From NCBI GenBank assembly GCA_050250375.1, contig JBFWOS010000001.1, forward strand, positions 958,361 to 1,022,360: 64,000 nt of DNA, read 5' to 3'. This DNA is from Candidatus Omnitrophota bacterium (GTDB lineage: Bacteria > Omnitrophota > Gorgyraeia > Zapsychrales > Zapsychraceae). The notes under the pieces were generated by a model. That model saw only the letters and a program-made list of their open reading frames with translations. It searched no databases and was not told the origin of the DNA. This document shows positions 21,078 through 42,103 of this stretch, piece by piece. Numbering within the stretch: position 1 is the first letter of the stretch; each line of letters begins with the position of its first letter. The position numbers were made by a program, and so were the translations under genes.

Positions 21078-21138
21078 GGGAAAGATTATATCACGGAAAA
21101 TATGCGTTTGGCTTTATATTCCCCCGCCCGGACAGGAA

Positions 21139-21429
21139 TCAGGCATGAATGGCCTTGATGACTTCCCGGGGATTATTTTTAAGAGCAGTGAGGAGTACCC
21201 GGGCCGGTCCTTCAGGATTTGTACGTCCCTGTTCCCAATTTCTGAGGGTTGCCACAGAAATGCCGATAATCCTGGCGAATTCCGGCTGCGAAAACTTCAA
21301 AGATTCTCTCAAGCCTTTAATATCAATCGGAGTCACTTTAAAACGGCGGGAGGCCTTTCGTGTTCCATCCGCTATTTGCCGCGCTTCCTTTATGCTTTTG
21401 ATGAGGTCATTAAATAATTCTTTTTTCAT
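21139..21429 (-). CDS. XRE-family HTH antitoxin (HigA-like)
   Basis: ISVATLRNWEQGRTNPEGPARVLL HTH. Overlaps the upstream toxin gene by 4 nt. Paralog of 33288..33578. Confidence 0.7.
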   Translation of the reverse strand: MKKELFNDLIKSIKEARQIADGTRKASRRFKVTPIDIKGLRESLKFSQPEFARIIGISVATLRNWEQGRTNPEGPARVLLTALKNNPREVIKAIHA

Positions 21430-21746
21430 AAAGCCCCTTCTTTAACTAATTCGGATAACATGTTCAACTGTTTTCTTGAAAGATCCGTTGATTCATTTTT
21501 TTTGTAGGCGAATAACATAAAAATTTGTGATCTTGAAAAGTACCAGTAATAAATAATACGGATCCCGGCCCTTTTACCTTTCCCTTTCGCTTTCCAGCGG
21601 ATCTTACGTAAACCTCCCCCCTGCGGGATCAGTCTTCCGGCATCCGGAGCCATGGTTAAATGCACTTGTAAGTCAGCGTACTCATAATCCTTAAGCAACC
21701 CAATAATCTGCCGGGTAAAAACGGACGTTTCCAAAAACTCCATCAC
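21426..21746 (-). CDS. RelE/ParE-superfamily toxin (HigB/Gp49-like)
   Basis: GGLRKIRW...GIRIIYY motif. Toxin-first order with a 4-nt overlap onto the antitoxin. Paralog of 33575..33892. Confidence 0.65.
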   Translation of the reverse strand: MMEFLETSVFTRQIIGLLKDYEYADLQVHLTMAPDAGRLIPQGGGLRKIRWKAKGKGKRAGIRIIYYWYFSRSQIFMLFAYKKNESTDLSRKQLNMLSELVKEGAL

Positions 21747-22208
21747 GCACTCCTTTAATAGTATACGCTATTAGCGTACTGTTCGCAAATAATTATTTAT
21801 TGTTGAGGAATTTACACAATGTTTTCTATATTATTATCGAAAAAAAGGAGAGTATTGAGTGGGGAGTGCCTGTATTATCTAACAGGGTGGCAGCCATATC
21901 AAGAACAAATTCCGGACCGGGTTCAAATTCACGGGGATATCCTTTTTGAGACTGTACTCCCCAAAGACGGGTCATCCGTTCCCTACGGGGTTTCAATGAA
22001 CCCAGCTCCCCGCATCAAGATGCGGGGTATCTGACAACGGCTTTAGCTCGCTCGTATGAAACAATAACCTCGCCCTCGAGGACAATCGGTTCATTCTGCG
22101 AAGCATACCCATCCTGCTACGCTCGAATGTTTTCACGTTCGAGCTTCGCAGAGATGATTCTGCCCGACGTCCAACCCCGATGCAAGCACCGGGGTATGCG
22201 AAGCAGAA

Positions 22209-22781
22209 TCAAGATTCACCGAATAAATGCAATTGTTCGTTTTCTTTATTTTCGTTTTGCCGCACCGGTTCTTCCATTTCCCTGTGACCGGACGTCTCTC
22301 CGCTTTCCAGAATGTGGATCACTTCAATCCCCTGTTCAAGCAGCGCCGGGGAAACAAGCCGGAAGCGGTGGCAGTTTAACGGATCTTTTTCCGCGCACAT
22401 CAGCGCGATGGTCAGTCCCTTTTGGATATTGCGGATAACGCCTTCAATGCCGTCTTTGAATTCAGCCCTGGACCTGACCCGGGCGTAATCCACGGTGCCG
22501 TCGGCGTTCAGCAGGTCCGGGTCTGAATAAATACCGCCCAGTTTGTCCCCGAGGTAAACATAAAGGATGTTCCGCTTTTTTAATTCCGCGGATATATTGT
22601 CTTTATTGAATTGCGGGACGTATTTGCTGTAAGGCGCGCTTCGAATATCAGCCAGGCAATTGACCGCGTGCCGCTCCAGCAGACGCATCAATTTGTCCAC
22701 CGAGTAATTCGAATGGCCGACCGTGAAACACGAATTCTTTTCTGAGTTTAATAAAGACATAAGCATTTGAAACGGGATCAA
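22209..22781 (-). CDS. DUF488-family protein
   Basis: TVGHSNYSVDKLMRLLERHAVNCLADIRSAPYSKYVPQFN matches the DUF488 N-terminal signature. Confidence 0.55.
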   Translation of the reverse strand: MIPFQMLMSLLNSEKNSCFTVGHSNYSVDKLMRLLERHAVNCLADIRSAPYSKYVPQFNKDNISAELKKRNILYVYLGDKLGGIYSDPDLLNADGTVDYARVRSRAEFKDGIEGVIRNIQKGLTIALMCAEKDPLNCHRFRLVSPALLEQGIEVIHILESGETSGHREMEEPVRQNENKENEQLHLFGES

Positions 22782-23818
22782 AAACTGTCTGACGGCTGTT
22801 CAATCTTCAACGCGGTAATAATATCCTCCCGCGCGTAAGGCCAGTCCGTAACGGTTTCAGCCGGGATCAGCACGTAATAATGCCGTCCGGCGGCCTGCCC
22901 CAGGTACTCACTGGCCTGTTTGTCGTCAGGATCAGTGGCGAGGATAGCCGGGTCGTCCGTCTGCCATAACCGGATCACAATCCCCTGCTTGGTCCTGCCT
23001 TGTCCGACGATCATGATCTCGACGGGGTCCGCGGCCAGCCACCCGGTCGGACCATACGGAGACTTGCCCTCACCGGGCGAGGCCTTCCAGTTCTGGTTGG
23101 GGAGGAATTTCGCCACGGCCTCAATCATTAAATCTTCCTCCCTGGCCTGGCCGGGATTAATCTTGAGGGTCAACACATTCGACGCCGGGATTGTTTCGCG
23201 GGTGAATCCATAGACCCCGGACGCGGTCTGAACGGTGTAATTTCCCGGCTGGGTAATGACAAATTCCTCGGCGATATCTTTATTATCCGCAAGGACGACG
23301 ATCTCGCCTGAATCAATCGCCTGCTCCGCGCCCAATGTCTGGACGCCGGCTCTCCTGGACAAGACCGGCTGTCCGTCCGGATCTTTCAACAAAAACGCGT
23401 TGCCGATCCCCTGGACATCGTACCATTTCAAGCGGCCCGACACATTTTTCATGACGAGATGGACCTTCACCGGCTGTCCGACCGTATACTCAGCCGATGC
23501 GGGGATGATCTGGACGCGGTACCCGCTTTCCTCCTTCCCCCACCGGTCATCAACCGCCAGCAAAGCCGCTCCGCGGGGTTCTTTAAAAACAGTCTCCACC
23601 CGCTCGATATGGCCGCGTTTGATGCACTGGCTGGAAGACTCCTGGACCAGTTCCAGCTCATCTTCGGCGGAACACCAGTCTTCCCTGTAAAAGGAAGGAT
23701 TGTTTTCCTTTAATTTGCCTTCCAGCACTTTCCCGCTCTTTAGGAAAATATTGTCCGCGAAACATGCGCGGGTTATTCCCATCCAGACCATCAGAAAACA
23801 GAGGATTATTTTTTTCAT
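22778..23818 (-). CDS. secreted hypothetical protein
   Basis: Signal peptide MKKIILCFLMVWMGITRACFA; 346 aa. Confidence 0.5.
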   Translation of the reverse strand: MKKIILCFLMVWMGITRACFADNIFLKSGKVLEGKLKENNPSFYREDWCSAEDELELVQESSSQCIKRGHIERVETVFKEPRGAALLAVDDRWGKEESGYRVQIIPASAEYTVGQPVKVHLVMKNVSGRLKWYDVQGIGNAFLLKDPDGQPVLSRRAGVQTLGAEQAIDSGEIVVLADNKDIAEEFVITQPGNYTVQTASGVYGFTRETIPASNVLTLKINPGQAREEDLMIEAVAKFLPNQNWKASPGEGKSPYGPTGWLAADPVEIMIVGQGRTKQGIVIRLWQTDDPAILATDPDDKQASEYLGQAAGRHYYVLIPAETVTDWPYAREDIITALKIEQPSDSF

Positions 23819-23832: not shown

Positions 23833-24234
23833 TTACTTTGGCAACAGGCCGAAGGCGGCCATCACCGCGGTTTCGAGGGGGACGAGATCTTTTTCCTTAC
23901 GGTCCAGGACAAAGTCGGCCCCGTTTTGCCCGAAAAACAAACGATCGTCTTCCATCGACAGGCCGACCTGAACGATAATCTTTGTCTGCGCCGCGGCCTG
24001 ACGGCGGACCTGCCGGCATAATTCCCGCGCGTCGGCCTGCGGTAACGTCCCGCTCATGATCACCAGATCCGGGTTTTCAGCGGCCAGCCGTTCAAGACCC
24101 TCCGGAGCGTTCTTCGCCAGCGTAATATGACAGAAGGCCAGGCCCCGCAGAAAACTTTCCAGCCGCAGGATATAAACAGGATGCGCGTCGATGATCAGGA
24201 TCTTCAGGTCCTGTATTTCCGGCCGGATACTCAT
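23833..24234 (-). CDS. atypical receiver-like domain protein (phospho-acceptor Asp apparently replaced)
   Basis: Receiver fold (ILIIDAHP...). The phospho-Asp position reads DLVIMSGTLP where DLVILDxxMP is expected. Overlaps the downstream RR gene by 4 nt. Confidence 0.45.
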   Translation of the reverse strand: MSIRPEIQDLKILIIDAHPVYILRLESFLRGLAFCHITLAKNAPEGLERLAAENPDLVIMSGTLPQADARELCRQVRRQAAAQTKIIVQVGLSMEDDRLFFGQNGADFVLDRKEKDLVPLETAVMAAFGLLPK

Positions 24235-24953
24235 ATAACATCTTCCACATTATGGCTCCGGCGGTATTCGGTCGGAGTGACCTTAACCGCCTGCTTAAAC
24301 TGCCGCATAAAAGTCCCCGGGCTTTGATACCCCAGTTCTGTGGCGATCTCGCTGACCGTGCGGTGGGTCTTGACCAGCAGTTCCTTGGCCTTGTCCATCT
24401 TGACCTTCCGTTTATAGTCCCGGAAACTCATTTCGTTCTTGTCATTAAACATCCGGCTGAGGTACCGCGGACTCAGGCACATCTCATCCGCGATGCTTTC
24501 GAGGTTGGCGTTGTCGTAATTGCGTTCGATAAACCGTTTCACGCGTTCAATCTGATCGTCTTTATCGAGACGGGAATTCTCTTCGTAGGATTTGGCCTGC
24601 AGAAGGTCGGACACCTTTAATTTCAGTTCCGCCATAAAAAAAGGCTTCTCAATAAAATCATCGGCGCGGCTGCGCAGGGATTTGAGCGCGACGTCCTTGG
24701 AGCCGAAGGCCGTCATCATGATCACCATGATTTTCTTGCGCCGGGCCTTGATCTCCGAGAGGACCGTGATCCCGTCGATGTGGGGCATTTTGACATCCAG
24801 GATGACCAGGTCCGCCGAGTTGGGTTTCATCAGGTAATCCAGGCCGTCCCTGGGGTCGATGAAACTGACAATCTCGTATTCGGGCAGGCCGAGCCTGATG
24901 CTTTTGATGATCCTCGGGTCATTATCAATGACGACTATTTTGGCTGATATCAT
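24231..24953 (-). CDS. response regulator with AraC-type HTH output
   Basis: Receiver (VVIDNDP, LVILDVKMPHIDG) plus a C-terminal AraC HTH (SIADEMCLSPRYLSRMF...ATELGYQSPGTFMRQFK). Confidence 0.8.
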   Translation of the reverse strand: MISAKIVVIDNDPRIIKSIRLGLPEYEIVSFIDPRDGLDYLMKPNSADLVILDVKMPHIDGITVLSEIKARRKKIMVIMMTAFGSKDVALKSLRSRADDFIEKPFFMAELKLKVSDLLQAKSYEENSRLDKDDQIERVKRFIERNYDNANLESIADEMCLSPRYLSRMFNDKNEMSFRDYKRKVKMDKAKELLVKTHRTVSEIATELGYQSPGTFMRQFKQAVKVTPTEYRRSHNVEDVI

Positions 24954-25017
24954 ATGATCGTTCCTGAAAAATTTGACCGCCCATTTTTAATCCTGAATCC
25001 GCCCGGTCCCGGCCGTT

Positions 25018-26823
25018 TTAATTCTGCCCGGCCAGTTCCGCCGGCCGTGTCCGGCGCAGGGCGGGAATCCTGATGAAAAAGGCGATGCTGTGTTCGTCCG
25101 TGTTGATTTTAGCTTCGATCGTCCCGTTATGAAACGCCACGATCTCCCGGCAGATCGCCAGGCCCAGGCCGAGCCCCCCCGACTTGGTGGTAAAAAACGG
25201 TTCAAAAATCTTTTCGGCTGAAACGGCCCCGGCATCCTCGACGGAATTCCTGACCTCGAGGACAATCACCCCCGGGTCATCGGGATGCTCCCCCGGCTCA
25301 TGACGGGTGCTCAGTCCGACCGGTTTCCCCGGCGGTGTCGCGTCCAGGGCGTTGGTCAGCAGGTTCAGCAGGACCTGTTTTAATTTCATCTCATTGCCTT
25401 CAATCGCGGGCAGTTTCTCGGCCAGGCCCTGCTCAATCTCTACGTTCATCTGTCCGGCCTTGATCCGGTTGAGCACCAGCGCCTCCTTCACGACCTTGTT
25501 CACGTCCATCCGGTCCTTGGGGAACGACTCATTGTTCTGGGAAAAGGCCACCATATTTTTCAGCGACGTGTTCCACAGTTCCAGCTCCCGGGGGATGGTG
25601 TCGTTAAAGTCACGCATAAATTCCTTGTCCTCCTGCTGCTGCGGGAGGAGTTCCACAAACGTCTCGACCAGCTGCAGCGAATTCTTCAGTTCATGCGCGA
25701 CCACCGTCGCGGCCTTGCCGACCACCGACAGTTTCTCGAGGTCGCGGGCCTTGCGCAGTTTGTCCGTCATGCGGTTGAACGTAAACAGCAGTTTGCCGAT
25801 CTCATTGCGGTGTTTGATCCGAAAGCGCTGGGACAGATCCCCCTGCGCCAGTTTCCGGGTCGAGGCCATGATCTCCCTGATCGGCCGGCTGATCAGCCGC
25901 GCCAGCACCATGCTGGCGCCCACCGCCGCGGTGATGCTCAGCAGAATAATGATCCACGACTGTTTTTTCATCCTCCCGGAAAAGGCGTACGCCTCGCTCT
26001 CCGGCTGGGAAATAATCAGCCCCCAGCGCAGCGATTCCACCGGCGCGTAAGAGACAAGCACGCGTTCCCCGCCGGCCGTGGTCTCCTCGGCGTTTCCGGC
26101 CCTGCCCGCTAAAATGTCATTGAGGATATTCAGCCCGGCGATGTGCGCGTTCTGCAGGACCAGTTTCTTGTCCGGATGCGCGATGATCCGGCCCTGCCCG
26201 TCAATCAGATAAGCCTTTCCCCGCTCGCCGAAACGAATGCCGTCGACAATGTCCCAGATGCTGCGCACGTTCAGGTCGGCCACCAGGACCGCGCTGACCC
26301 GTCCGCGCTGTTTGATCGGCTCGGCCAGGGTTAAAAACGGAATATAGTTTTCAGAAATTTTAATGTCGGAAATGTACGGTTTCCCGGATGCCGCCTGCCG
26401 GAACGCCTCTTCCGGCGACCGATCACGCAGCTTGGTCCCGGCCTCGGACGTCGCTGTCTCCTGTCCTGACAAATCCACCGCCGAGACCCGCTGGAAGGCA
26501 GGGTTATTTAAAGACAATTCGACCAGCGTCGTTTCCTGCCGCCAGGGGTCCGCGTTTAACGTCCCCAGCATCGACGCCGTCACCAGCAAAAGCTGCCGCG
26601 CCCCTTTGACATATTCCTTCACCTCGCCGGTGGTGTGCAGGGCAATTTCCTTGTGGTCACGGAAGACCGACGTCTTGATCGCGTCCTGGCTGGTGCGCAC
26701 CAGCAGGACCCCCAGGACCACCAGAGGGATCACCATCACGGAAATCAAAAGCAGAAAGATCTGCTGCCAGATACGCCTGGGGAGAATGCGCTGAATCCAT
26801 AATCGGTTCTTTTTCATATTCAA
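25018..26823 (-). CDS. sensor histidine kinase (Cache-like, HAMP, HisKA, HATPase)
   Basis: Two TM helices around an extracytoplasmic domain; H-box VAHELKNSL; GLGLGLAICREIV ATPase motif. Confidence 0.8.
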   Translation of the reverse strand: MNMKKNRLWIQRILPRRIWQQIFLLLISVMVIPLVVLGVLLVRTSQDAIKTSVFRDHKEIALHTTGEVKEYVKGARQLLLVTASMLGTLNADPWRQETTLVELSLNNPAFQRVSAVDLSGQETATSEAGTKLRDRSPEEAFRQAASGKPYISDIKISENYIPFLTLAEPIKQRGRVSAVLVADLNVRSIWDIVDGIRFGERGKAYLIDGQGRIIAHPDKKLVLQNAHIAGLNILNDILAGRAGNAEETTAGGERVLVSYAPVESLRWGLIISQPESEAYAFSGRMKKQSWIIILLSITAAVGASMVLARLISRPIREIMASTRKLAQGDLSQRFRIKHRNEIGKLLFTFNRMTDKLRKARDLEKLSVVGKAATVVAHELKNSLQLVETFVELLPQQQEDKEFMRDFNDTIPRELELWNTSLKNMVAFSQNNESFPKDRMDVNKVVKEALVLNRIKAGQMNVEIEQGLAEKLPAIEGNEMKLKQVLLNLLTNALDATPPGKPVGLSTRHEPGEHPDDPGVIVLEVRNSVEDAGAVSAEKIFEPFFTTKSGGLGLGLAICREIVAFHNGTIEAKINTDEHSIAFFIRIPALRRTRPAELAGQN

Positions 26824-26871
26824 GGATAAACCGGTCCGTCTTTAATACTAATATAAATGGAAATATTTTGT

Positions 26872-28317
26872 TTATAGATTACTATAAATCGCTTCTTTAT
26901 TCAAAAGGTTATTCACCGCGCCGGTTTTCGCCGTTTTTGAGGTTCTTTCCGCCAGTTTCTTCTGGTACTCGCGTTTGATGAAATCCGGGGCCATCCGGTT
27001 GAGGTACGGTTTGTGGCAGGTCGGCGTGCTGAAATTTTTATTGATCAGAAACGACGACAGCCGGCATCCCCCGCCGCACATCGGCATATACGTGCAGTCC
27101 TGCGGACACTGCTTCCAGACATCCAGCCCGACAAACTCTTTGTGTTTCGCGTTTTTGGGTTCGTCAAAGATGTTCCCGGTCGAGAGTTCGGGGTGTCCGA
27201 GCATGGAATTGCATTTGTAGATACGCCCGTGCTGGTCGACGGTCCCGGCCCCGTGATCGCGGGTGACCGGACAGATCGAGGTCGACAAACCGTCTCTCAC
27301 CGGCAGGCCGTTTTCCTCCAGGAGCGCGTGGATCTTTCGATACGCCGCGGTCAGGTTATCATTTTCGTAATTGCACATGCACTGCGGGCTGACGATCCGT
27401 TCGGTGTTTCCGGCGGGACCGAGCGTCGCGTGGATCGCCCCGAAAATAAAATTCCCCAGCTTGTGCAGGATCCCGCGCTGTTTGAGAAAACCGATCAGCT
27501 CTTCGATGTGGGCGGTCTCGCCTTTGTCAAAACCGACGGAAAGGCTGATCCTGATCTTGTCGATGTTGGCCTCGATGTTCCGCATGATCCGCTCAAAGGT
27601 CCCGCCTCCACCCCGCAAAGGACGGGTGCGGTCGTGTTTTTCCCCGACGCCGTCGATCGAGATCCGCGCCTGCGTCAGGCCGAGCGCAACGTAATGGTCC
27701 ACCGCCTCCGCGCTCAGCAGGTACCCGTTGGTCTGCAGCATAAACTGGAACCGGACCCCCTGTTCCCGGCACCAGGCCTGCATCGCCGCGGCAATCCGGT
27801 CAATCGCCGGACGGTTAGCGAGCGGTTCCCCGCCGTAAAAAACCAGAAACAGCTCTCCATATTTTTCTTCATTAATTTTATTTTTCAGCCAGACGATCAG
27901 CCGCTCGGCCGTTGACGGCTCCATCTGTTCCGTCCGGCTGCGCGTGCTTTCCTCAAAACAGTACACGCATTTCAAATTGCAGGCGTACGTCGTCAGCACC
28001 GTCAGTACCAGCCGCGATTTCATCCGTCCGTATTTAATCTGGTCCAGATGCGCCAGCAGACGCTGCCGGTCTTCCTCTTCATCTTTCACAAGGATGCCCG
28101 TGCGGTGCAGGGCCTCAAGATTTTTGAGAACGGATTGCGGGAGGGAGGGAAACGGGGAAGGGAAATTCTCGATCAGGTTCTTTAACTCTTCTTTGATTTT
28201 GATCAATGCCTGGGTCCGTGTGTGATAAACAAGATGCTCGCCCGCCGCAGGATAATCATTGACGATGATCGTATGGTTGGAAAATTTCATCGTTTGATCT
28301 CCTTTAATGTTCACCAA
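26872..28317 (-). CDS. radical SAM/SPASM-domain peptide-modifying enzyme with an N-terminal extension (possible RRE)
   Basis: CNLKCVYC is the CxxxCxxC radical-SAM motif, about 110 aa from the N-terminus. C-terminal auxiliary clusters (CPVTRDHG...YKCNS, CPQDCTYMPMCGGGC) look SPASM/twitch-like. Confidence 0.8.
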   Translation of the reverse strand: MVNIKGDQTMKFSNHTIIVNDYPAAGEHLVYHTRTQALIKIKEELKNLIENFPSPFPSLPQSVLKNLEALHRTGILVKDEEEDRQRLLAHLDQIKYGRMKSRLVLTVLTTYACNLKCVYCFEESTRSRTEQMEPSTAERLIVWLKNKINEEKYGELFLVFYGGEPLANRPAIDRIAAAMQAWCREQGVRFQFMLQTNGYLLSAEAVDHYVALGLTQARISIDGVGEKHDRTRPLRGGGGTFERIMRNIEANIDKIRISLSVGFDKGETAHIEELIGFLKQRGILHKLGNFIFGAIHATLGPAGNTERIVSPQCMCNYENDNLTAAYRKIHALLEENGLPVRDGLSTSICPVTRDHGAGTVDQHGRIYKCNSMLGHPELSTGNIFDEPKNAKHKEFVGLDVWKQCPQDCTYMPMCGGGCRLSSFLINKNFSTPTCHKPYLNRMAPDFIKREYQKKLAERTSKTAKTGAVNNLLNKEAIYSNL

Positions 28318-28374
28318 TCGCCTATTAAGAACCGGGCGCCGCGGTCACGCACACGGCACCCGTGATTGATTGTA

Positions 28375-28491
28375 TTATTCGGATTCCGGTTCCGGGCTTT
28401 GGAAGCCCTGTGTTCCGGGAGGCCAGCAACAACTCAATGAATTCATCGCGGTCAGATCGTCTGTCCCTTCACAAAGGATATCAATGTCCAT
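28375..28491 (-). CDS. candidate RiPP precursor peptide (38 aa): MDIDILCEGTDDLTAMNSLSCCWPPGTQGFQSPEPESE
   Basis: Not in the ORF track because it is shorter than 60 aa. GGAGGTG lies 7 nt upstream of the ATG. It is 57 nt upstream of the rSAM/SPASM gene on the same strand and contains three Cys plus a CCW motif. Confidence 0.45.
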   Translation of the reverse strand: MDIDILCEGTDDLTAMNSLSCCWPPGTQGFQSPEPESE

Positions 28492-28560
28492 AGAATCACC
28501 TCCTTTCTAGTTACCCGCCTAAATCCAATCTGTTCGTTCACAAGCGGGCGGGGATAGATT

Positions 28561-30168
28561 TTATTTCCGGTCCGTCAAATACCAGTCCTTGATCATAAAT
28601 GTGGCCATGTTGATATTAAAATAATCCTCCACTCCGCCGAATTTTGCGCTCAGGGCAAAAAACCCTTCATGAAAAAAAAGAAAACAGGCCGTCTGATCCT
28701 CATAAATCAGCCGGTGAATCTTTTGAACTTTATGATGACTAATATCTGTGTCGGGTTCTGAGCGGGCCTCTTCGATCAACCGGTCGAGTTCGGCATTTTT
28801 GTGGAACCAGAATTGCCCGGGCATACTGAAGCCGGAGTACCAGGGACTAACCGCGTCGATTTCATTCGAAATATATCCGGGTAAATACCTTAACCAGGCC
28901 TGGATTTTAAGCCGGTCCAGATAATCCTTGTCTATATCACTGAAGTTTTTATAAAATTGCGGGATCAATCTGATCCCAACCGCGGCCAGCTGCTGGCGGA
29001 TCATCAAGGCCGCTTTTTTGTGAATAGGATCGCGGTCATTGACCAGCATCCGGATCTCCAGGTCCTGTCCCTCTTTTTCAAGGATCCCGTCGCCGTTCAT
29101 ATCCTGCCAGCCGTTATTTTCCAAAAGACGCGAGGCCTCGTCCGGATCATATTCAAACGGTTTTAGGTCCGGATTAAATCCGGCCGACTGCGGATGAATC
29201 GGACCGACGCTCAGGGTTCCCTGAATATCAGCCGAACGCTTCAGGATGCCTTGTGCATCAATGCTGTGGGCGATGGCTTTGCGGACCATGATGTCCGCGA
29301 GCACCGGATCATCCAGATTATAAACAATCGCGCTGTAAACTTCCGCGCTCACGGAAAATGTCTTAAACGCCGGGTCCTGGCCCAGCACCAGATAGTCTTC
29401 CTTACTGATAAATTGAACGAGATCAACTTCGTGTCGTAACAGACCCGACCACATGGCCGCCGGATCAGGGTAAGCCTTTACGACGATCCGGTCAAGGTAA
29501 GGCCGGCCCTCAAAATAACCGGGATTGAATTCCAGCCGTATCTCATCACTCGTGCGATCCCAATGGACAAAACGGAACGGACCGGTTCCCGTCGGCGCGT
29601 AGAAAAACGGATTGTCCCGGATATTCTTTCCCTCAAGAAGATGCCGCGGAAGGATGGGATGGATGAACTGCTCAATGAACGAAGAAACCGCTTCTTTAAG
29701 ATGAAACCGGATTGTATACGGATCAAAAATCTCGACCTGGTTGATCGGGGAAAATTTCGACCGGTAAGGAGAATCGTTTTCGGGATTTCGGTACTGGTCG
29801 TAACTGAAAAGAACATCACGCGCGGTCACCTCAACCCCGTCATGAAAACGCACGCCCTTACGCAGGTAAAAAGTGTAATCAAGCCCGTCCGGTGAGATCT
29901 CCCAGCGTTCCGCCAGGTCCGGTTCAAATTCGCCTTTCGCATTAAGACGGACCAGACCGTTAAATACAAGACTCATCAAGTCCGCGGATATACTGTATGT
30001 CGTAAAAACCGGATTTATCGGATTGGGTTTGAACTGGGTCCCCCAGACCAGTGTTCCGCCGTAATTTGGTTTATTTTCGGCAGACGGCTGGCGTGCGCCT
30101 TCAACGGACGGTGAGACGAGCAGCAAACTCATCACAACAAAGATTATATGGTTGGTTTGGCTGGTCAT
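28561..30168 (-). CDS. ABC transporter substrate-binding protein, family 5 (peptide/nickel; OppA/DppA-like)
   Basis: Signal peptide; LAERWEISPDGLDYTFYLRKGVRFHDG matches the SBP_bac_5 signature region. Confidence 0.8.
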   Translation of the reverse strand: MTSQTNHIIFVVMSLLLVSPSVEGARQPSAENKPNYGGTLVWGTQFKPNPINPVFTTYSISADLMSLVFNGLVRLNAKGEFEPDLAERWEISPDGLDYTFYLRKGVRFHDGVEVTARDVLFSYDQYRNPENDSPYRSKFSPINQVEIFDPYTIRFHLKEAVSSFIEQFIHPILPRHLLEGKNIRDNPFFYAPTGTGPFRFVHWDRTSDEIRLEFNPGYFEGRPYLDRIVVKAYPDPAAMWSGLLRHEVDLVQFISKEDYLVLGQDPAFKTFSVSAEVYSAIVYNLDDPVLADIMVRKAIAHSIDAQGILKRSADIQGTLSVGPIHPQSAGFNPDLKPFEYDPDEASRLLENNGWQDMNGDGILEKEGQDLEIRMLVNDRDPIHKKAALMIRQQLAAVGIRLIPQFYKNFSDIDKDYLDRLKIQAWLRYLPGYISNEIDAVSPWYSGFSMPGQFWFHKNAELDRLIEEARSEPDTDISHHKVQKIHRLIYEDQTACFLFFHEGFFALSAKFGGVEDYFNINMATFMIKDWYLTDRK

Positions 30169-30288
30169 GGTCTTGAGGTTAGTAAAGATAACATAATCAG
30201 TCTAATATACTTTTAAGTGATTTAAACTAACTTTTTGGCATTTTAAACCGACTTTTTTCTACCTTGATCAGAGGCCGGACGAGAATTT

Positions 30289-32355
30289 TCAGAAATGGAC
30301 GGAAAAACCGCCTTCAAAATACCGTTCGGGCAAGGGGAAAGAAATGTCTGACCAGTATTTGCTGTTGGTGAGATTGTGGATGTTGAGGAACAGTTCCAGA
30401 TCAAGATCCTGTTTGACCGCCTCAAACCGTTTGGACAGTTTCAGGTCAAAGATCGGTTTACGGTCGTTGGCTTTCAAAGACGCTCCGGAACTCCAGCGGT
30501 TGTATGTCCCGTACAGGTTCGCCCCCCAGCCATGCGCGTCGCTATAACGCGCGCCGAAGGTGTAACGCTGGCGCGCCACGCCCTGGTCGCGGACCGTTGC
30601 TTTGGTGTCGCGGTTTTCCGCGTCGTTAAAGGCGCCGCTACCGTAAAAACTCAGGCGGTCATTGAGCGCGTAATCAAGCAGGAGTTCAACCCCCTGCCGG
30701 CGGAATTTTCGGATGTTGCGCTGGACAAACAGAAAATCATCCGTGTCAAACTCAAGCGCGATGCCGTCCTCGACATTCGACCGGTACAGGTTCAGTTCCA
30801 GGCCCAGCGCGTCAAGAAGCTTGGTTTCAAAGCCCAGCTCATACACAATAGCGCGTTCGGCCTTGAGGTCCGGGTTCGGCCCCACAAAAAAAGCCGGAGA
30901 ATAATTGTAGATCCACAGCAACGGCGGGGCGTTAAAGGCGCGCGCCACCTTCCCGCGCACCAGCGTTTCCCGTTCGTCGTCAAAGGCGTACACGGCGCCG
31001 AGTGAAGGGTTGGACTGCGACCCAAACCGGTCATTGTGATCATAACGGAATCCGGGAATCAAATCCAGCCGGTCAACGCTCAGCGTGTAATGGGCATAAT
31101 ACCCCTGCATCTTGATTTCTTTACCGCTGTCCAGATACCGGTTGGATTTCAGCCGGTGCCAGTCGGCATCGACGCCCGCTACCAGAACGCTGTTGTCCGT
31201 CACATCAAAGGCTCCGTTGAGGCTTACCCCCTTGTAAAAATTACTGCTGACGGTGGAAAAGACCTGGTCGCCTGCCGGAATTCCAAAAAAATCTGAAATA
31301 ATATCCTGGTCATTAAACTTGACGTCCAGCCCCAGGCGGAAATCCTCCTGTTCGGTTTCCACCCCGAGTTTTCCGTAACGGGTGAAATACGGCTGTTCGA
31401 CGACCGAAGAACTGGTGGAAAGCGCGTAACGGGTGTGGGCCTCGTTATACCCGAAAGACCCGACGATCCTGGAGGTGTCCCCCAAGGGGTGAGAAAATTT
31501 GGTGAAATATTTTTTGTCGCGCGCCTCGCTGTAGGCCTGCGCCCCGTCCGTCTCATAAAAACTGCCGGTAAAAAGATACCCTAATCCTCCGGCCTTGCCC
31601 GCGAAATCAAGGCTGTTTTCCGTTGTGCTGAATTCGGCAAAAGAACTGCGGAAACTTCCGCGCGGCCGGGCTGTGTCCCCGGTGTCACGCGTCACCACAT
31701 TGACGACCCCGCCCAGCGCGGAACCCCACGCGCTGGAAGACGCGCCCTTGATGATCTCGATGCGTTCAATATTATTGACCGGGAACTGCGCCGGATTGCC
31801 CTGGCCCGAAAGCTGGGTGTTGACCGGGATCCCGTCGATCATCAGCCGGACCTGTCGCGATGGAGCGCCGTTGATAGATAACGCCGATACTTGGCCGAAC
31901 TGCCCTCCCAGCTGGACATGAACCCCCGGGACGTACGACAGCACCTCACCCAGGTCGCGCGCCGGCATGCGCAGGATCTCCTCGCGGGTGACGACCGTCA
32001 TGTTGTCCGCCACCTGTTTGCGCGGGACCGGATTGCGCAGCGCCGTCACCACCACCGCCTCATACTGAAAAAATTCCGCCGAACGGTAGCTCCGCGGCTG
32101 CTCCGCCAAAACAACACCGTCGGGCAAATCAAAACCGGCCGGCAGCAAATCCTCTTCCGTCTCCTGGTAGACCGTGGTGCGGTACCGGTCGATCTGGTTA
32201 GACTGGTCTTCTTCGCTGGAAATGTGTTCGGTGGTGACCACGCGTTTTTGGGTAACAACGGGCCGGCCGCCGGGTGTGTCGTCGGCGTTCAGGAATGAAG
32301 GCGCGCACAGAAAAATCAGCACCGCCAGAAAAAACGATAAGAATTGGGGGGCCAT
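30289..32355 (-). CDS. TonB-dependent outer-membrane receptor
   Basis: Signal peptide, plug domain (NIERIEIIKGASSSAWGSALGGVVNVVT) and a beta-barrel ending in a C-terminal F. Confidence 0.8.
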   Translation of the reverse strand: MAPQFLSFFLAVLIFLCAPSFLNADDTPGGRPVVTQKRVVTTEHISSEEDQSNQIDRYRTTVYQETEEDLLPAGFDLPDGVVLAEQPRSYRSAEFFQYEAVVVTALRNPVPRKQVADNMTVVTREEILRMPARDLGEVLSYVPGVHVQLGGQFGQVSALSINGAPSRQVRLMIDGIPVNTQLSGQGNPAQFPVNNIERIEIIKGASSSAWGSALGGVVNVVTRDTGDTARPRGSFRSSFAEFSTTENSLDFAGKAGGLGYLFTGSFYETDGAQAYSEARDKKYFTKFSHPLGDTSRIVGSFGYNEAHTRYALSTSSSVVEQPYFTRYGKLGVETEQEDFRLGLDVKFNDQDIISDFFGIPAGDQVFSTVSSNFYKGVSLNGAFDVTDNSVLVAGVDADWHRLKSNRYLDSGKEIKMQGYYAHYTLSVDRLDLIPGFRYDHNDRFGSQSNPSLGAVYAFDDERETLVRGKVARAFNAPPLLWIYNYSPAFFVGPNPDLKAERAIVYELGFETKLLDALGLELNLYRSNVEDGIALEFDTDDFLFVQRNIRKFRRQGVELLLDYALNDRLSFYGSGAFNDAENRDTKATVRDQGVARQRYTFGARYSDAHGWGANLYGTYNRWSSGASLKANDRKPIFDLKLSKRFEAVKQDLDLELFLNIHNLTNSKYWSDISFPLPERYFEGGFSVHF

Positions 32356-32474
32356 AATTTAATTCGGTTAATGATTAAGCCCCTATAATACAACAAAATC
32401 CGCAAAACGCAAATAGTTGATGTTGGGGGGATAAAAATGAAGAAAAGGGATAATCCGAATAAATAATAACGTAG

Positions 32475-32564
32475 GGAACAGGCATGCCTGTTCCCTTCTA
32501 TTCTTCGATCCCTGTGCCCTGATCCCTGATCACTAATTAGACCGCTGTCCCGTATCTTAACCGC
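32475..32564. repeat. REP-like mosaic repeat, copy 1 (20-nt perfect palindrome GGAACAGGCATGCCTGTTCC plus conserved 3' module)
   Basis: About 90% identical to 34473..34555. The 3' module GATCACTA..CGCTGTCCCGTATCTTA recurs at 35581..35616. Confidence 0.7.
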
Positions 32565-32722: not shown

Positions 32723-33184
32723 TTAGAGCATTACGATTATTCAAAACCCGGATATTATTTTATTACCGTCTGCACCAGAAACCGTAAGGATTGGTTCGGG
32801 GAAATCAGGGACGGGAAAATGATGTTGAATCCGTGCGGGGAAATTGTTTCGCAATGTTGGCATGATTTGCCGGCCCATTATCCCAATTTGCAATTGGATC
32901 AATTCGTTATAATGCCGGACCATATTCACGGGATAATAAATATTAATAAAAATAACGTAGGGAACGGTTTAAAACCGTTCCCTACAAAATTGCACGGATT
33001 ATCCGAATTCGTCCGCGCGTTCAAAACGTTTTCATCTCGCGGAATCAATCATCATTTGAATGGCAACGGCCGTTTCCATTGGCAAAAATCCTTCCACGAC
33101 CACATCATCCGCGACAAACAATCGTTGGAAGAAATCCGGCAATATATCATCAGGAATATTGATGGGGGAAATAAAATAAGATAA
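32723..33184 (+). CDS. IS200/IS605-family HuH Y1 transposase, RAYT-like; no canonical start codon (possible pseudogene or non-ATG start)
   Basis: In-frame translation upstream of the track ORF (32819) reads LEHYDYSKPGYYFITVCTRNRKDWFGEI, the conserved RAYT N-terminus. HuH motif PDHIHGII. Catalytic Tyr in EEIRQYIIRN. The frame is open back to the stop at 32654 with no ATG/GTG/TTG. Confidence 0.55.
   Translation, partial: LEHYDYSKPGYYFITVCTRNRKDWFGEIRDGKMMLNPCGEIVSQCWHDLPAHYPNLQLDQFVIMPDHIHGIININKNNVGNGLKPFPTKLHGLSEFVRAFKTFSSRGINHHLNGNGRFHWQKSFHDHIIRDKQSLEEIRQYIIRNIDGGNKIR
32948..32976. repeat. 29-nt perfect palindrome GTAGGGAACGGTTTAAAACCGTTCCCTAC inside the RAYT coding sequence
   Basis: Shares the AATAACGTAGGGAAC half-site with the REP-like palindromes at 32466 and 34473. 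Confidence 0.6.
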
Positions 33185-33287: not shown

Positions 33288-33578
33288 TCAAGCGTGTAAC
33301 GCGTCCATAACAATCTTGGGGTTGGCTGCGGCAACCTTTAACAAGGCTAAAGCCGGACCGTCGGGTTTTCTTCGGCCCTGCTCCCAGTTCTGCAATGTGT
33401 CGATGCTGACACCGATCATAAAAGCGAATTCGGACTGGGTGACGTGAAGTTCTTTCCGTATTTTTTTGACCATCACCGGATTAAATTTAAAAATCCGGCC
33501 GGGTTTTAATTTTCCTCTGCGTATTTTGCGGGCCTGGTCAATGCTCGTCAATAATTCTTTAAAATCATGATCTTTCAT
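33288..33578 (-). CDS. XRE-family HTH antitoxin (HigA-like), paralog 2
   Basis: ISIDTLQNWEQGRRKPDGPALALL; roughly 55% identical to 21139..21429. Confidence 0.7.
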   Translation of the reverse strand: MKDHDFKELLTSIDQARKIRRGKLKPGRIFKFNPVMVKKIRKELHVTQSEFAFMIGVSIDTLQNWEQGRRKPDGPALALLKVAAANPKIVMDALHA

Positions 33579-33892
33579 AATGCCCCTCCCTTCACGTATT
33601 CGCCCAAAATCTTCAACTGTTCTATGGTTAAATCTTCTTGTTCTGACTTTTTATACAGGAACAGTAAATAGATCTGCTCATCTTCCAAATACACATAATA
33701 AATGATCCGTATTCCGCCTCTTTTTCCGGCCCCGGGAACGGCCCAACGCAATTTTCTTAATCCCCCGCTTCCCGGAATGACCGGCCCTGCTTGCGGATTG
33801 ACCACCAGCGCCCATTGCAGGTCTTTATACTCATCGTCAGAAAAAACATTGTTTATTCTTTTTGAAAAAACCGGAGTTTCTATAATCTCCAC
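33575..33892 (-). CDS. RelE/ParE-superfamily toxin (HigB/Gp49-like), paralog 2
   Basis: GGLRKLRW...GIRIIYY; 4-nt overlap with the antitoxin gene. Confidence 0.65.
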   Translation of the reverse strand: MEIIETPVFSKRINNVFSDDEYKDLQWALVVNPQAGPVIPGSGGLRKLRWAVPGAGKRGGIRIIYYVYLEDEQIYLLFLYKKSEQEDLTIEQLKILGEYVKGGAL

Positions 33893-36548: not shown

Positions 36549-36615
36549 AATAAATAGGGACGGAGGCGAATTATTGAACAAACGCTAAAAACAGGGTTCG
36601 CCCCAAATTAAATTC
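36549..36615. repeat. gene-terminal hairpin repeat, copy 2
   Basis: AATAAATAGGGACGGAGGCGAATTATTGAACAAACGCTAA... is a direct repeat of the 35896 element. Confidence 0.5.
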
Positions 36616-36664
36616 ATGAATTTCCGCTAATTAATTGTTGTGTCCCGAGATTAATGTAGTTCTT

Positions 36665-37588
36665 TCAATTTTTACCTACAAAGATTTGAGCTGTGTCTAC
36701 AACACCCTTTTCATTAAAATAGAATTCCAATGTTCCGTATGAAATTTTATATTTTGCCCGCGGGGTTCCATCTAATGTTTCAGGATCATATTTGTCAGGC
36801 TTTCCGAATATCCTGATTATATCTTCGACTTTTTCACCTCGTTTTATCGGAAATACGTTCGGTTGGTAGGTTTTATAAGTGACCTCTCTGTTGGTTAGAG
36901 AATTAAAAAAAGTATAATCCTGCAGAAAAACAGAGATAATCGATACTTTTTGTGTCTCTTTATTTATTCCCAAAAAACTTAATCCTTTTGAATAATATGA
37001 TAAACCTGATAATTCAGACTCAGCATCAGGCTTACCATAATGTTTAATTACATCATGAACAAATAAATTTTTCATTCCTATACCACTTATAGTTCCCTTT
37101 CTTAAATCGATTGTCCCCTCTGATAACTCAGGCTCAGGTAAACTTTGTAAACTACCTGTTTTTGGAGCTTTTTCTATAAATGATGGATCGTCCAACGGCG
37201 TTAAAATAGTTTTCATGTTCTGTCCTAAAAGAGCTCGATCGTTTATCCAACCCATACCCTGCATGGGGGAAGTCCTCACATAATAATAGGTGTCACCATT
37301 CCATCGTTTAACTTTCTCAATTGTTATTTCTGTACCTACTGCTAACTCTATTTCTGTTATAAGAAGCTCTCTCAAAGATCCAAACGGGTTCTCATACATT
37401 GGTGTTTGCCGAGTCAGTTTAAATGTGTCTGTTGGCTGCAGATTCTCATCCGCTTGCACAAGCCGAGCCAATCCAAGAATAAGTACACAGTACATTATGA
37501 AAATGGATCTATTTCGCACAAAATCCTTCTTTTTAAAAGTGCGTTTCCCGGATTTAGAATTCCGGGTCCCCGCGTTGGAACAGGTCAA
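36665..37588 (-). CDS. hypothetical secreted protein
   Basis: 307-aa ORF. An internal Met followed by a hydrophobic signal-like segment (MYCVLILGLARLVQA) suggests a later true start. Confidence 0.45.
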   Translation of the reverse strand: MTCSNAGTRNSKSGKRTFKKKDFVRNRSIFIMYCVLILGLARLVQADENLQPTDTFKLTRQTPMYENPFGSLRELLITEIELAVGTEITIEKVKRWNGDTYYYVRTSPMQGMGWINDRALLGQNMKTILTPLDDPSFIEKAPKTGSLQSLPEPELSEGTIDLRKGTISGIGMKNLFVHDVIKHYGKPDAESELSGLSYYSKGLSFLGINKETQKVSIISVFLQDYTFFNSLTNREVTYKTYQPNVFPIKRGEKVEDIIRIFGKPDKYDPETLDGTPRAKYKISYGTLEFYFNEKGVVDTAQIFVGKN

Positions 37589-37623
37589 GCCTCTTCAATT
37601 TCCCTCTGTCACGTTCTCTTGAA

Positions 37624-39825: not shown

Positions 39826-39826
39826 C

Positions 39827-40765
39827 TTAAATTTTTTGTATATAACTCAATTTTTCGTGTAATTTCTTCAACAAAACGTTCTTATTCGGCACAGGGAATA
39901 AGAGCAGTATAATTCGCAAATCCGTCTTTATCGGACTACTTCTGTGGTCATCAAAATACTTCTTTAAAGCACGCATTTCATTTTCATATTCGCATACAAA
40001 TTCAGCCGTCTTTTCAGAATTATGCTTGTTAAACACTTCGCTAGTATATGTGCACAACAAGGGGATAGTCACAGATTCAAGAATATTCTCTAAGGTATTG
40101 TCCACATCAATCAGATCAAACCACCTGTCTTTGTCTGGAATCACACTCGAATCAGCATAAAAATTACGTTTCTTGGAGATAAGCGCAAATTCTCTAAGCA
40201 AATAATCCCTCTCAAAGTGTTTCATTATATCCTGTGTAAGCTCCTTGACTCCACTGCTACCACTTGCGTGCAATTTTGACTCGCCAAGCCATAAAGATTT
40301 ACTTGGTGCGTGAATATGCACAGCATCAAAACCATGAACAGTGATTCCATCGGCATCTTTGAAAAAAACTTTTGATAACAGACAAATGGTATTGTGGAAA
40401 TCTCTAAGAAGAAGATGCAGAATCAATTCACCAAACTCTCCCCGCCGGCCATATTTTTTTTCAAAGAAATCATCCTCATCTCGATACTTCTTATGTTCAT
40501 GATTAGTAGAATCGTACGGATCAATTTTGTATATCGCCTTAGCTGCTTCCTTTAACTTTTCTCTATTGTATGTATTGGTTAAAATGCCGTCATGATAACC
40601 AAAAGCAAAATCAACTAAAGCATTCAGAAGCTTACCAATCAGCGGGTCCCATCTATACTCTCCAAGATCGAATCCCACAAAATAAGTTTTCAAGTCTGCC
40701 TCGGAGATGTGCTGAGTAATAACTGTTTCTGATCCGAATGGGGTCTTTATTTCTGATTTTGGCAT
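39827..40765 (-). CDS. candidate Hachiman HamA (DUF1837-like, PD-(D/E)xK)
   Basis: 312 aa. Putative nuclease motif GFDAVHIH...GESKLH (D...ExK). Upstream and adjacent to the helicase in the Hachiman gene order. Confidence 0.4.
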   Translation of the reverse strand: MPKSEIKTPFGSETVITQHISEADLKTYFVGFDLGEYRWDPLIGKLLNALVDFAFGYHDGILTNTYNREKLKEAAKAIYKIDPYDSTNHEHKKYRDEDDFFEKKYGRRGEFGELILHLLLRDFHNTICLLSKVFFKDADGITVHGFDAVHIHAPSKSLWLGESKLHASGSSGVKELTQDIMKHFERDYLLREFALISKKRNFYADSSVIPDKDRWFDLIDVDNTLENILESVTIPLLCTYTSEVFNKHNSEKTAEFVCEYENEMRALKKYFDDHRSSPIKTDLRIILLLFPVPNKNVLLKKLHEKLSYIQKI

Positions 40766-40880
40766 TTCAGTATACTTCGTTCCAATTTTAGAAAACTTTA
40801 TAAATCAACAGAAAAATACCGGGCCAACTCTGTATAACTGCATATGGTTTGTCACTTGCCGTACTGCGAAAACCTGATCC

Positions 40881-42091: not shown

Positions 42092-42103
42092 AAACTTGTC
42101 CTT

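Follow-up and report, generated by a model that had tools for sequence, protein, structure and literature searches.

A conserved locus joining a predicted radical SAM-modified peptide to a TonB-dependent receptor, an orphan binding protein and a dCache kinase in Omnitrophota: a possible peptide autoinducer system

Gene content and organization of the locus

We analysed a 64,000-nt stretch of DNA from a Candidatus Omnitrophota bacterium (assembly GCA_050250375.1, contig JBFWOS010000001.1, positions 958,361 to 1,022,360), hereafter the window, in which the genes for a short precursor peptide and a radical S-adenosylmethionine (rSAM) enzyme lie in a seven-gene region together with an outer-membrane receptor, a binding protein and a two-component system. 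The region spans 23833-32355 (all coordinates are positions within the window), and all seven genes are on the minus strand. From the upstream end they are:

30289-32355, minus strand: TonB-dependent receptor (TBDR), 688 aa; Pfam Plug and TonB_dep_Rec_b-barrel
28561-30168, minus strand: family-5 (Opp/Dpp/Nik-type) substrate-binding protein (SBP), 535 aa; SBP_bac_5, 267 bits
28375-28491, minus strand: precursor peptide, 38 aa, MDIDILCEGTDDLTAMNSLSCCWPPGTQGFQSPEPESE; AAGGAGG ribosome-binding site in front
26872-28290, minus strand: rSAM/SPASM peptide maturase, 472 aa; Pfam Radical_SAM, 69 bits
25018-26823, minus strand: sensor histidine kinase (HK), 601 aa; dCache_1-HAMP-HisKA-HATPase
24231-24953, minus strand: response regulator (RR-AraC), 240 aa; canonical receiver (Response_reg) and AraC-type HTH_18
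23833-24234, minus strand: stand-alone pseudo-receiver (REC133), 133 aa; Response_reg, 44 bits

An earlier note on this DNA had described seven co-directional minus-strand genes in this order, separated by gaps of 48-120 nt or by 4-nt overlaps. All seven lie where it had placed them, and the measured intergenic gaps agree: 120, 69, 84, 48 and 64 nt, then a 4-nt overlap between RR-AraC and REC133. The 84-nt gap shrinks to 57 nt with the mechanically assigned TTG start of the rSAM gene at 28317; alignment of homologs backs the ATG at 28290. The same note held that the locus has neither permease nor ATPase, which is borne out: an ATP-binding cassette (ABC) exporter query bearing ABC_tran gave no tblastn match across the 64-kb window, and Pfam scans of the window's larger open reading frames (ORFs) returned no ABC, TonB or ExbBD gene. 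The importer partners of Opp/Dpp/Nik-type proteins (two permeases and one or two ATPases) are found neither in the 64-kb window nor in related loci. The window SBP matches NCBI protein MGE0268618.1, which comes from the metagenome-assembled genome (MAG) of a Candidatus Omnitrophota bacterium, at 100% identity.

The gene set is conserved across phyla

We aligned 25 rSAM homologs, took 80 loci (numbered with the prefix L) from GTDB species genomes, and mapped the window proteins onto them by tblastn. Synteny was counted only in loci with at least 4.5 kb on each side of the rSAM gene. Among the 18 loci with an rSAM at least 36% identical to that of the window, all of them from Omnitrophota or from mislabelled 'Planctomycetales' MAGs, the dCache kinase is present in 18/18, the SBP in 17/18, plus a frameshifted copy in L020, and a TBDR upstream of the SBP in 17/18, the missing one being L163. 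An ABC exporter is present in 15/18. At 26-35% rSAM identity (n = 14; Spirochaetota, Zixibacteria, Nitrospirota/Nitrospinota, Desulfobacterota and Auribacterota), the kinase is found in 9 loci, the SBP in 11, the TBDR in 3 and the ABC exporter in 1, the 150-bit threshold having missed at least the exporter of L023. Other rSAM families, less than 26% identical, served as an internal negative control, and in these 15 loci the kinase, the SBP and the TBDR are all absent and an ABC exporter occurs once.

The linkage also holds when it is approached from the binding protein. Three SBP homologs (43-46% identity), picked without reference to the rSAM and solely for their long contigs, all adjoin an rSAM gene, an ABC exporter and a dCache kinase (3/3). 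A metagenomic SBP set obtained with degenerate, overly generic patterns was reused as a negative control. None of its 79 generic SBP_bac_5 genes (25-36% identity, among the matches listed) has an rSAM, kinase or TBDR gene nearby, and many are followed by ABC-ATPase-like matches, often paired, consistent with importer operons; among the matches listed, only L098 (49% identity, with a TBDR upstream on a truncated contig) is a member of the system. The earlier note had reasoned that the adjacency would be accidental if orthologous loci carried the TBDR and SBP genes apart from the rSAM/peptide pair. Neither the rSAM side nor the SBP side revealed such a separation. The arrangement is far beyond chance and an accidental adjacency is effectively excluded; since both the rSAM-centred and the SBP-centred counts hold, the seven genes can be treated as a functional unit.

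The precursor, the rSAM/SPASM enzyme, the SBP and the dCache-HAMP kinase form a core that is kept in Omnitrophota and in each of the phyla named above. Its content persists despite a change of order (SBP-peptide-rSAM-HK versus rSAM-peptide-SBP-HK), while the TBDR, the ABC exporter and the type of response regulator are lineage-specific accessories. The closest relative, L164 (rSAM 90% identical), has exactly the seven-gene order of the window and the same downstream genes. In L161 (rSAM 38% identical) a phosphoenolpyruvate carboxykinase (PEPCK) gene lies a few kb upstream, and the window has its own PEPCK gene at 55831-57675. Given these shared neighbours, the locus appears to be inherited chromosomally within Omnitrophota rather than to be recently mobile. 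Besides L163, which is without a TBDR, the other exception is L005 (CAZIRV010000121.1, 1-6929), in which the TBDR is inverted and the SBP, the kinase and a recognisable precursor are absent. It keeps the rSAM, an ABC exporter, the AraC regulator and the start of the pseudo-receiver, and looks like a decayed version of the system.

In 15/18 of the Omnitrophota-type loci a half-ABC exporter of ~570-600 aa (ABC_membrane and ABC_tran, no peptidase domain) sits between the rSAM and the kinase genes. The presence of this gene in relatives implies an export step. As most relatives carry this in-cluster exporter and the window lacks it, the window holds a reduced version of the locus. As a separate observation, three SBPs stand between the rSAM and the kinase in the peptide/rSAM locus of L032 (3586-8604), and L127 and L139 are also among the loci with three or more tandem SBP_bac_5 genes; such tandem SBPs may serve several ligands or specificities.

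The precursor peptide and its predicted maturase

A conserved small ORF adjoins the rSAM gene in more than 40 loci, as is characteristic of the precursors of rSAM/SPASM maturases that act on peptides made by ribosomes and modified after translation (RiPPs). In the window it comprises the leader MDIDILCEGTDDLTAMNSLS and the core CCWPPGTQGFQSPEPESE. About 27 Omnitrophota precursors have in common the leader pattern M-x-[IV]-[IV]-x-x-G-[ST]-[DE] and the core CC[WFY]P.G[TS], followed by a variable tail that is either acidic (…PEPE) or basic (…LRIR). The Thr/Ser at Cys+5 is common, not invariant (Val in L164, Ala in L002), and besides CC the core contains no conserved metal ligand (His, Cys or Asp). 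Spirochaete precursors read CC[IWY]W…, and those of an rSAM-first sister clade are 21-26 aa long and carry one Cys, with 4-9 mainly hydrophobic residues after it, e.g. MKLQIVKKGDKSKQGKTLYCVWLV and MKLKVVKKGSKEDKKVLWCFWYLYV. Being short, hydrophobic and provided with one Cys, the sister-clade peptides look like signals, not chelators.

The window rSAM starts with a ~95-aa leader-recognition region. Its CxxxCxxC motif (C113/C117/C120) is invariant across the 25 rSAM homologs, as are C349, C369, C404, C408, C414 and C418 in the C-terminal part, with C313 and C434 nearly so. The CxxxCxxC motif and the Cys-rich C-terminal region together are of the SPASM type, and the homolog in L061 matches the SPASM model TIGR04085. 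Of the NCBIfam models, TIGR04280 (geopeptide radical SAM maturase) fits the window enzyme best, with 252 bits where the cutoff is 400; it is also the top family for every related rSAM tested, at 247-326 bits, all under the cutoff. The Cys-thioether maturase models CefB, TIGR04463 and PapB come next, and SCIFF ranks lower still (91-128 bits for PapB and SCIFF). The closest solved structure is 5wgg, which we take to be CteB, the SCIFF maturase. On the peptide side, the geopeptide model TIGR04229 has a cutoff of 30 bits and gives 7.2 bits (E = 4.9) for the window precursor; L001 (20.6 bits) and L039 (16.5 bits), aligned from the leader start to CC, also stay under 30, and the other eight precursors tested do not match. 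A search for Geobacter geopeptide loci with the rSAM closest to TIGR04280 (that of L022) was set aside, having returned only Spirochaete- and Omnitrophota-type proteins, none named geopeptide. Judging by these scores, the system is a distant, sub-threshold relative of geopeptide and not a member of that family.

The invariant Cys and the nearest enzyme families suggest a cross-link from Cys sulfur to carbon, most likely one or two thioethers of the SCIFF/ranthipeptide type formed from the invariant Cys. The i/i+5 spacing of Cys22 and Thr27 in the window precursor is also that of the CteB product (CteA Cys32-Thr37).

Receptor, binding protein, kinase and regulators

The TBDR has a signal peptide, a TonB box (EAVVVTA), a plug and a barrel, and its closest solved structures are BtuB, Cir and FepA. 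It carries no STN signalling domain, and no sigma/anti-sigma genes accompany it, so that it does not resemble a FecA/FpvA-type signalling receptor. In other orthologs the TonB box directly follows the signal peptide. A ~70-aa extension between the two (residues ~25-95), which is not an STN domain, was seen only in the window and L164, and a longer one in L002.

The SBP has a Sec signal peptide, no lipobox and no cognate permease or ATPase. Of its relatives in the PDB, B. subtilis AppA ranks first (201 bits) and 4oet comes next; the latter is annotated as a putative peptide-binding protein, and we take it to be the nickel-binding protein NikZ. The next-best family relatives include the nickel/metallophore binders NikA and CntA; the methanobactin-binding protein MbnE (5ICQ) is not among the best 60 of 65 PDB relatives. 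AppA, NikA and MbnE share one fold.

The kinase is laid out as a transmembrane segment, a periplasmic dCache_1 domain, a second transmembrane segment, HAMP, HisKA and HATPase; irrespective of the output domain, a dCache-HAMP kinase recurs in the related loci of Spirochaetes, Nitrospirota and Desulfobacterota. Both halves of a two-component system are recognisable: the kinase has HisKA (weak, AHELKNS) and HATPase_c, and RR-AraC keeps its phospho-acceptor Asp (ILDVKMP). The kinase dCache domain resembles those of the amino-acid sensors PctA and PctB. In the dCache_1AA family, R-x-W-Y and an Asp in the membrane-distal module make up the amino-acid-binding motif. The Asp equivalent to that of the PctB ligand motif is kept (VADLNV), and the R-x-W-Y part is absent, the region of PctB that reads 'RRRPWY' being 'PEEAFRQ' here, so that plain amino-acid sensing is an unlikely role for the kinase. 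A second dCache-HAMP kinase is encoded elsewhere in the window (1098-2999).

REC133, which had been flagged as an atypical receiver, indeed has Ser in place of the phospho-acceptor Asp (IMSGTLP) and D-A in place of the acidic DD pair, and this is so in 10/10 sequences (the window and nine orthologs). The motifs DxHPVY, IVQxGL and RKEKD are likewise kept in all ten. The output side differs between lineages. Subclade A, to which the window belongs, has an AraC regulator and a pseudo-receiver; L161 and L163 have an HTH_17 regulator; subclade B, L061 and L021 have one of the NtrC/sigma-54 type, in subclade B upstream of the TBDR; the Spirochaete locus L022 has a HisKA_3 kinase with a LuxR/GerE regulator; and L030 has an HD-GYP regulator.

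Divergence and co-variation within the locus

Compared with L164, a contiguous block holding the SBP and the peptide (28440-30230) is only ~72% identical in DNA, whereas its neighbours reach ~85-86% (TBDR), ~90% (rSAM) and ~87% (HK). At the protein level the SBP is 65% and the peptide 69% identical, against 83-90% for the TBDR, rSAM, HK and RR, and the SBP/peptide differences lie partly in the variable peptide tail. The SBP has a synonymous divergence (dS) of 1.17, against 0.33-0.65 in neighbouring genes, and an ordinary ratio of nonsynonymous to synonymous divergence (dN/dS) of 0.19; that of the precursor is 0.33. No gene shows an elevated dN/dS between the window and L164, and the SBP divergence is old and not demonstrably adaptive. 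Across loci, leader distance tracks rSAM distance (Mantel r = 0.68), and tail distance tracks that of the TBDR and of the periplasmic part of the HK after control for the rSAM (partial r = 0.34-0.41). The distances of TBDR and HK are themselves correlated at r = 0.91-0.93.

Non-coding elements and transcription

Three non-coding features lie within or directly in front of the locus:

32356-32425, minus strand: region upstream of the TBDR gene; promoter-like, with the tandem repeat TTTGCGTTTTGCGG and then TATTAT
30169-30288, minus strand: TBDR-SBP spacer with the block AAAAAGTTAGTTTAAATCACTTAAAAGTATATTAGACTGAT, nearly identical in L164
28333-28362, minus strand: GC-rich stem-loop of 11 bp (9 G-C), directly 3' of the peptide gene

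The ~70 nt in front of the TBDR ATG and the spacer block are ~95% identical to their counterparts in L164, against 81% for the whole locus, and the spacer block is kept although the SBP gene that follows it is the most diverged of the locus. These conserved blocks upstream of the TBDR and the SBP are probably promoters, which makes two or three transcription units plausible. A stem-loop after the precursor gene was found in 21/21 loci folded. Most stems have 10-20 bp, and because they recur with unrelated sequences it is the structure of this element that is conserved rather than its sequence. A hairpin with read-through is the usual device to over-produce a precursor transcript, and the post-peptide hairpin would act as a partial terminator or mRNA stabiliser. 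In the hairpins of subclade-B loci (L013, L014, L015, L034, L048 and L163) the motif (CU)GGGCGGCCGACC(AG) surrounds the tip of stems that otherwise differ; it might bind a protein or an RNA instead of belonging to a plain terminator.

Upstream, a hairpin resembling repetitive extragenic palindromic (REP) elements, at 32473-32496, parts the TBDR promoter region from the DNA beyond. It shares GGGAAC…GTTCCC arms with a second one at 32956-32986 (2 matches against 0.05 expected), and both adjoin a truncated IS200/Y1-transposase-like ORF (region 32819-33184, plus strand), with which they possibly form a pair of REP elements and REP-associated tyrosine transposase (RAYT).

Motif searches upstream of the TBDR genes for a regulator site found only A/T-rich 7-mers in common, barely above shuffled sequences; several of the subclade-B 'upstream regions' are in fact the 3' end of the NtrC-type regulator gene. 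A Fur-box-like string, TTAATCATTAAC, was dismissed since it agrees with the consensus at ~10/19 positions by eye. The intergenic regions of the window locus share only chance 8-mers, and an Rfam scan of 22-34 kb returned no riboswitch, its one sub-threshold miRNA match being noise.

Surroundings of the locus in the window

Downstream of REC133 lies one more co-directional gene:

22778-23818, minus strand: secreted 346-aa protein (p346), no Pfam family, 14 nt downstream of REC133

It may be co-transcribed with the locus. It is kept only in the close relative L164 (62%) and absent from the other loci, and its membership in the peptide system is doubtful. Relative to L164, a 1.7-kb insertion (21078-22802) lies between the p346 gene and a GtrA-like gene and holds a RelE-like toxin ORF (21426-21746), with a small ORF upstream of it, and a DUF488 gene (22209-22781). 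A second RelE-like/helix-turn-helix (MqsA-like) pair is found at 33288-33892.

Between the peptide locus and the PEPCK gene, 36600-48000 is a low-GC island (30-40% against ~50% elsewhere) that contains a Hachiman-like defence pair (HamA and a DEAD/ResIII helicase), DUF6119, a DUF1016-SNase nuclease, a methyltransferase and a class-3 lipase (ORFs include 37624-39825, 39827-40765, 43552-45201, 45325-46416 and 46493-47347); it is probably an inserted defence island. At the other end of the window, a DUF4914 protein is encoded at 3812-5701, and a cluster of genes for an Orn/DAP-type decarboxylase, an ATP-grasp enzyme and a GNAT (FemAB-like) protein at 6370-9995 may make a small amide-linked metabolite.

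A possible autoinducer loop and its alternatives

The combination of a leader-dependent maturase, a usual exporter, a transporterless SBP, a dCache kinase and interchangeable outputs argues that the peptide acts outside the cytoplasm and is perceived by the lineage that produces it. The explanation to which we give about an even chance is that the locus encodes a RiPP autoinducer loop: after modification and export, the peptide would return through the TBDR, bind to the SBP and be perceived by the kinase. The conserved leader of the 38-aa precursor would be recognised by the N-terminal domain of the rSAM/SPASM enzyme, and the enzyme would cross-link the invariant Cys-Cys to nearby residues. 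The modified peptide would then leave the cytoplasm, in most relatives through the in-cluster half-ABC exporter; the window lineage, having lost it, might use an unlinked exporter or mainly listen. The 18-residue core, at an estimated ~2 kDa, is likely too large for porins, and the TBDR would pull extracellular peptide back across the outer membrane. In the periplasm the orphan family-5 SBP would capture the peptide, and the kinase dCache domain would read either the peptide or the SBP-peptide complex, the latter route being modelled on LuxP-LuxQ. The kinase would phosphorylate the AraC-type regulator, which would drive the locus in positive feedback and probably other genes, and the Asp-less receiver might act as a modulator. 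Owing to the post-peptide hairpin, peptide transcript would be in excess, and some transcription would run on into the genes for the enzyme and the sensor. That the sensing part (peptide, rSAM, SBP and kinase) is invariant while the outputs vary counts for a signalling function. The divergent SBP-peptide block and the co-variation of leader and tail with enzyme, receptor and kinase are supporting hints, and the hairpin after the peptide gene and the kinship of the rSAM with Cys-thioether maturases also fit.

The earlier note had likewise proposed a modified-peptide signal that is sensed or imported. The linkage behind that proposal is real and signalling is the leading hypothesis; the TBDR turned out to be an accessory, found mainly in Omnitrophota (3/14 distant loci, absent from L163). 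A number of points tell against the autoinducer loop. No exporter is present in the window, L164, L002, L007 or L009, and the Spirochaete and clade-2 loci are mostly without one, so that secretion is not demonstrably encoded everywhere; nor does the locus encode an exit route through the outer membrane. Uptake of a signal by a TBDR would be unusual and costly, such receptors being typical of scarce nutrients and metallophores. The divergent SBP block could reflect recombination instead of ligand-driven diversification, and the unrelated p346 is as diverged from L164 as the SBP is. The correlation between SBP and peptide tail is not significant after control for the rSAM, the SBP distances being saturated, and Mantel tests on related sequences overstate significance and are too weak to decide the receptor. 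Finally, while gene content, conserved linkage, peptide family, hairpin and pseudo-receiver are observed, we infer how the peptide is modified, which way it is transported, what the SBP and the kinase bind, and that there is autoinduction and signalling.

The most serious alternative is a methanobactin-like metallophore: a secreted Cys-rich peptide would bind Cu/Ni or similar, the TBDR and SBP would recover the complex, and the two-component system would adjust production. A TBDR, an orphan OppA/AppA-like SBP and an inner-membrane exporter beside a RiPP precursor match the mbn operons (PMC7558416). The vicinal cysteines of the core, the kinship of the SBP with NikA, CntA and 4oet and the B12 and siderophore receptors closest to the TBDR would also suit a chelator. 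We nevertheless consider it improbable. The sole maturase is an rSAM/SPASM enzyme whose relatives use up Cys thiols in thioethers, and no MbnB/MbnC domains (DUF692/MNIO and partner) occur in the locus genes or the larger window ORFs scanned. The lack of metal ligands besides CC, the single Cys and hydrophobic residues of the sister-clade peptides and the absence of MbnE from the best 60 of 65 PDB relatives of the SBP point the same way, as does the loss of the TBDR from most versions outside Omnitrophota while SBP and HK persist. Regulation, too, would run through dCache kinases with varied outputs and not through Fur or an extracytoplasmic function (ECF) sigma/anti-sigma pair: the TBDR has no signalling extension, and neither a convincing Fur-box-like element nor a riboswitch lies upstream. 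An opposite direction of transport, with the TBDR as the outer-membrane exit for the peptide, the SBP as its carrier from the ABC exporter and the kinase as a monitor of periplasmic load, strikes us as very improbable. It would supply the exit that is otherwise missing, and it would fit the co-conservation of exporter, SBP and TBDR in 15/18 loci and the tight correlation of TBDR and HK distances; Oar of Myxococcus is such an exit for the protease PopC. But export through a TBDR is a rare exception and SBPs are known for capture in import or sensing, the window keeps its TBDR and SBP despite having lost the exporter, and the Spirochaete and clade-2 versions have an SBP without a TBDR.

A self-induced antimicrobial of the nisin kind, auto-induced via the kinase and regulator, with the SBP and possibly the TBDR sequestering or clearing the peptide in the service of immunity or recycling, is unlikely. 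It has the sensing loop in common with the autoinducer explanation, from which it departs only in what the peptide is primarily for. Antimicrobials are common among rSAM/SPASM Cys-crosslinked peptides, an ABC exporter with a two-component system resembles lantibiotic clusters, defence and toxin-antitoxin genes adjoin the locus in the window, and the fast divergence of the SBP/peptide segment is of the kind seen in arms races. Set against this, the locus has neither LanFEG-type immunity transporters nor a small protein for immunity, no precedent is known for an Opp-type SBP of 535 aa in that role, a TBDR that imports the cell's own toxin would be counter-productive, and the cores are very short, those of the sister clade being more pheromone- than toxin-like. 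As for the genes being separate neighbours, a TBDR, SBP and two-component system for an external nutrient (oligopeptides, nickel complexes or a corrinoid) with the peptide/rSAM pair merely adjacent or a regulated target, the synteny counts bring this explanation close to refuted. Each component alone does have ordinary nutrient-uptake relatives, and L163 and L005 show that the TBDR, or the SBP and HK, can be absent. Yet the linkage spans at least six phyla with its order rearranged and its content kept, no association at all was seen with unrelated rSAM families or generic SBPs, none of the loci has the importer permease/ATPase of generic SBP_bac_5 operons, and there is no cobalamin or other riboswitch.

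Returning to the autoinducer loop, we tentatively extend it, as a bolder and less probable proposal, to a widespread, hitherto unrecognised class of cell-cell signalling systems of diderms in which an rSAM-crosslinked autoinducer is perceived by SBP and dCache kinase, uptake is TonB-gated in Omnitrophota, and exporter-less lineages either listen or use an exporter that is shared. Quorum sensing by peptides counts as a trait of Gram-positive bacteria, and diderms are known mainly for small diffusible signals. If the signalling circuit is real, it would be a conserved module by which a crosslinked ribosomal peptide is sensed in the periplasm via a binding protein and a Cache kinase, and it would show a route for large peptide signals across the outer membrane, namely TonB-dependent uptake. 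Hardly any members of the phyla concerned (Omnitrophota and many Spirochaetota, Nitrospirota and Desulfobacterota MAGs) are in culture. The circuit would offer a rare experimental handle on their social or host-associated behaviour, as the peptide, the enzyme, the SBP and the kinase domain can all be made heterologously. Were the product a metallophore instead, it would be the first one made by an rSAM enzyme and the second RiPP family with TBDR/SBP re-uptake. Either way, the locus gives the uncharacterised 'geopeptide'-like rSAM family a testable context.

Comparison with known systems

Geopeptide (TIGR04229/TIGR04280), which has a bioinformatic definition only and under whose name we found no publication, resembles the system in its rSAM, for which it is the best family, and in the leader-to-CC alignment of some orthologs; its 22-position model cannot hold the Omnitrophota WPPGT motif and the tail of 7-13 residues. 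The SCIFF/ranthipeptide systems (CteB-CteA, PapB) likewise have an rSAM/SPASM enzyme with an N-terminal leader-binding region. Their precursors are Cys-rich 45-mers or carry CX3D repeats, whereas the core here has two adjacent Cys, and SCIFF/Pap loci have not been described with a TBDR, an SBP or a dCache kinase. The earlier note had known of no such arrangement around sactipeptides or ranthipeptides. For those we found none either; among RiPPs at large, methanobactin with MbnT and MbnE is a precedent.

LuxP-LuxQ and TorT-TorS place a transporterless binding protein beside a kinase with a double-PAS/Cache periplasmic fold; the likeness is one of analogy only, LuxP being a ribose-binding-type SBP, non-homologous to the system here, that binds autoinducer-2 (AI-2) and not a peptide. 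PrgZ/TraC of Enterococcus plasmids show a family-5 SBP that is an orphan dedicated to one peptide pheromone (PrgZ), and in the agr and nisin systems a modified-peptide signal is sensed by a cognate kinase. In agr the segment for signal and receptor is the fastest-diverging one, of which the SBP-peptide block is reminiscent, recombination being an equally good explanation. PrgZ, agr and nisin belong to Gram-positive bacteria, which have neither an outer membrane nor a TBDR; PrgZ passes its peptide to the Opp permease and a cytoplasmic receptor, and it is AgrB, rather than an rSAM enzyme, that processes AgrD.

Methanobactin operons resemble the locus in layout: they combine a RiPP precursor, an inner-membrane exporter, the TBDR MbnT and the orphan OppA/AppA-related SBP MbnE, with no inner-membrane importer (PMC7558416), and the window locus similarly has a TBDR and an OppA-like SBP, without importer, beside its precursor. 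Methanobactin differs in its MbnBC maturase and ECF sigma/anti-sigma control, where the system described here has an rSAM/SPASM enzyme and a dCache two-component system; its chelating heterocycles are not expected here, and the TBDR is dispensable in many relatives of the locus. The literature searched holds no description of the architecture or of the peptide family. Each element has precedents (kinase-sensed RiPP autoinducers, co-sensing SBPs, orphan OppA homologs that bind pheromones, methanobactin re-uptake by TBDR and SBP); what is new is that they come together around an rSAM-crosslinked peptide, in diderm phyla that are largely uncultured.

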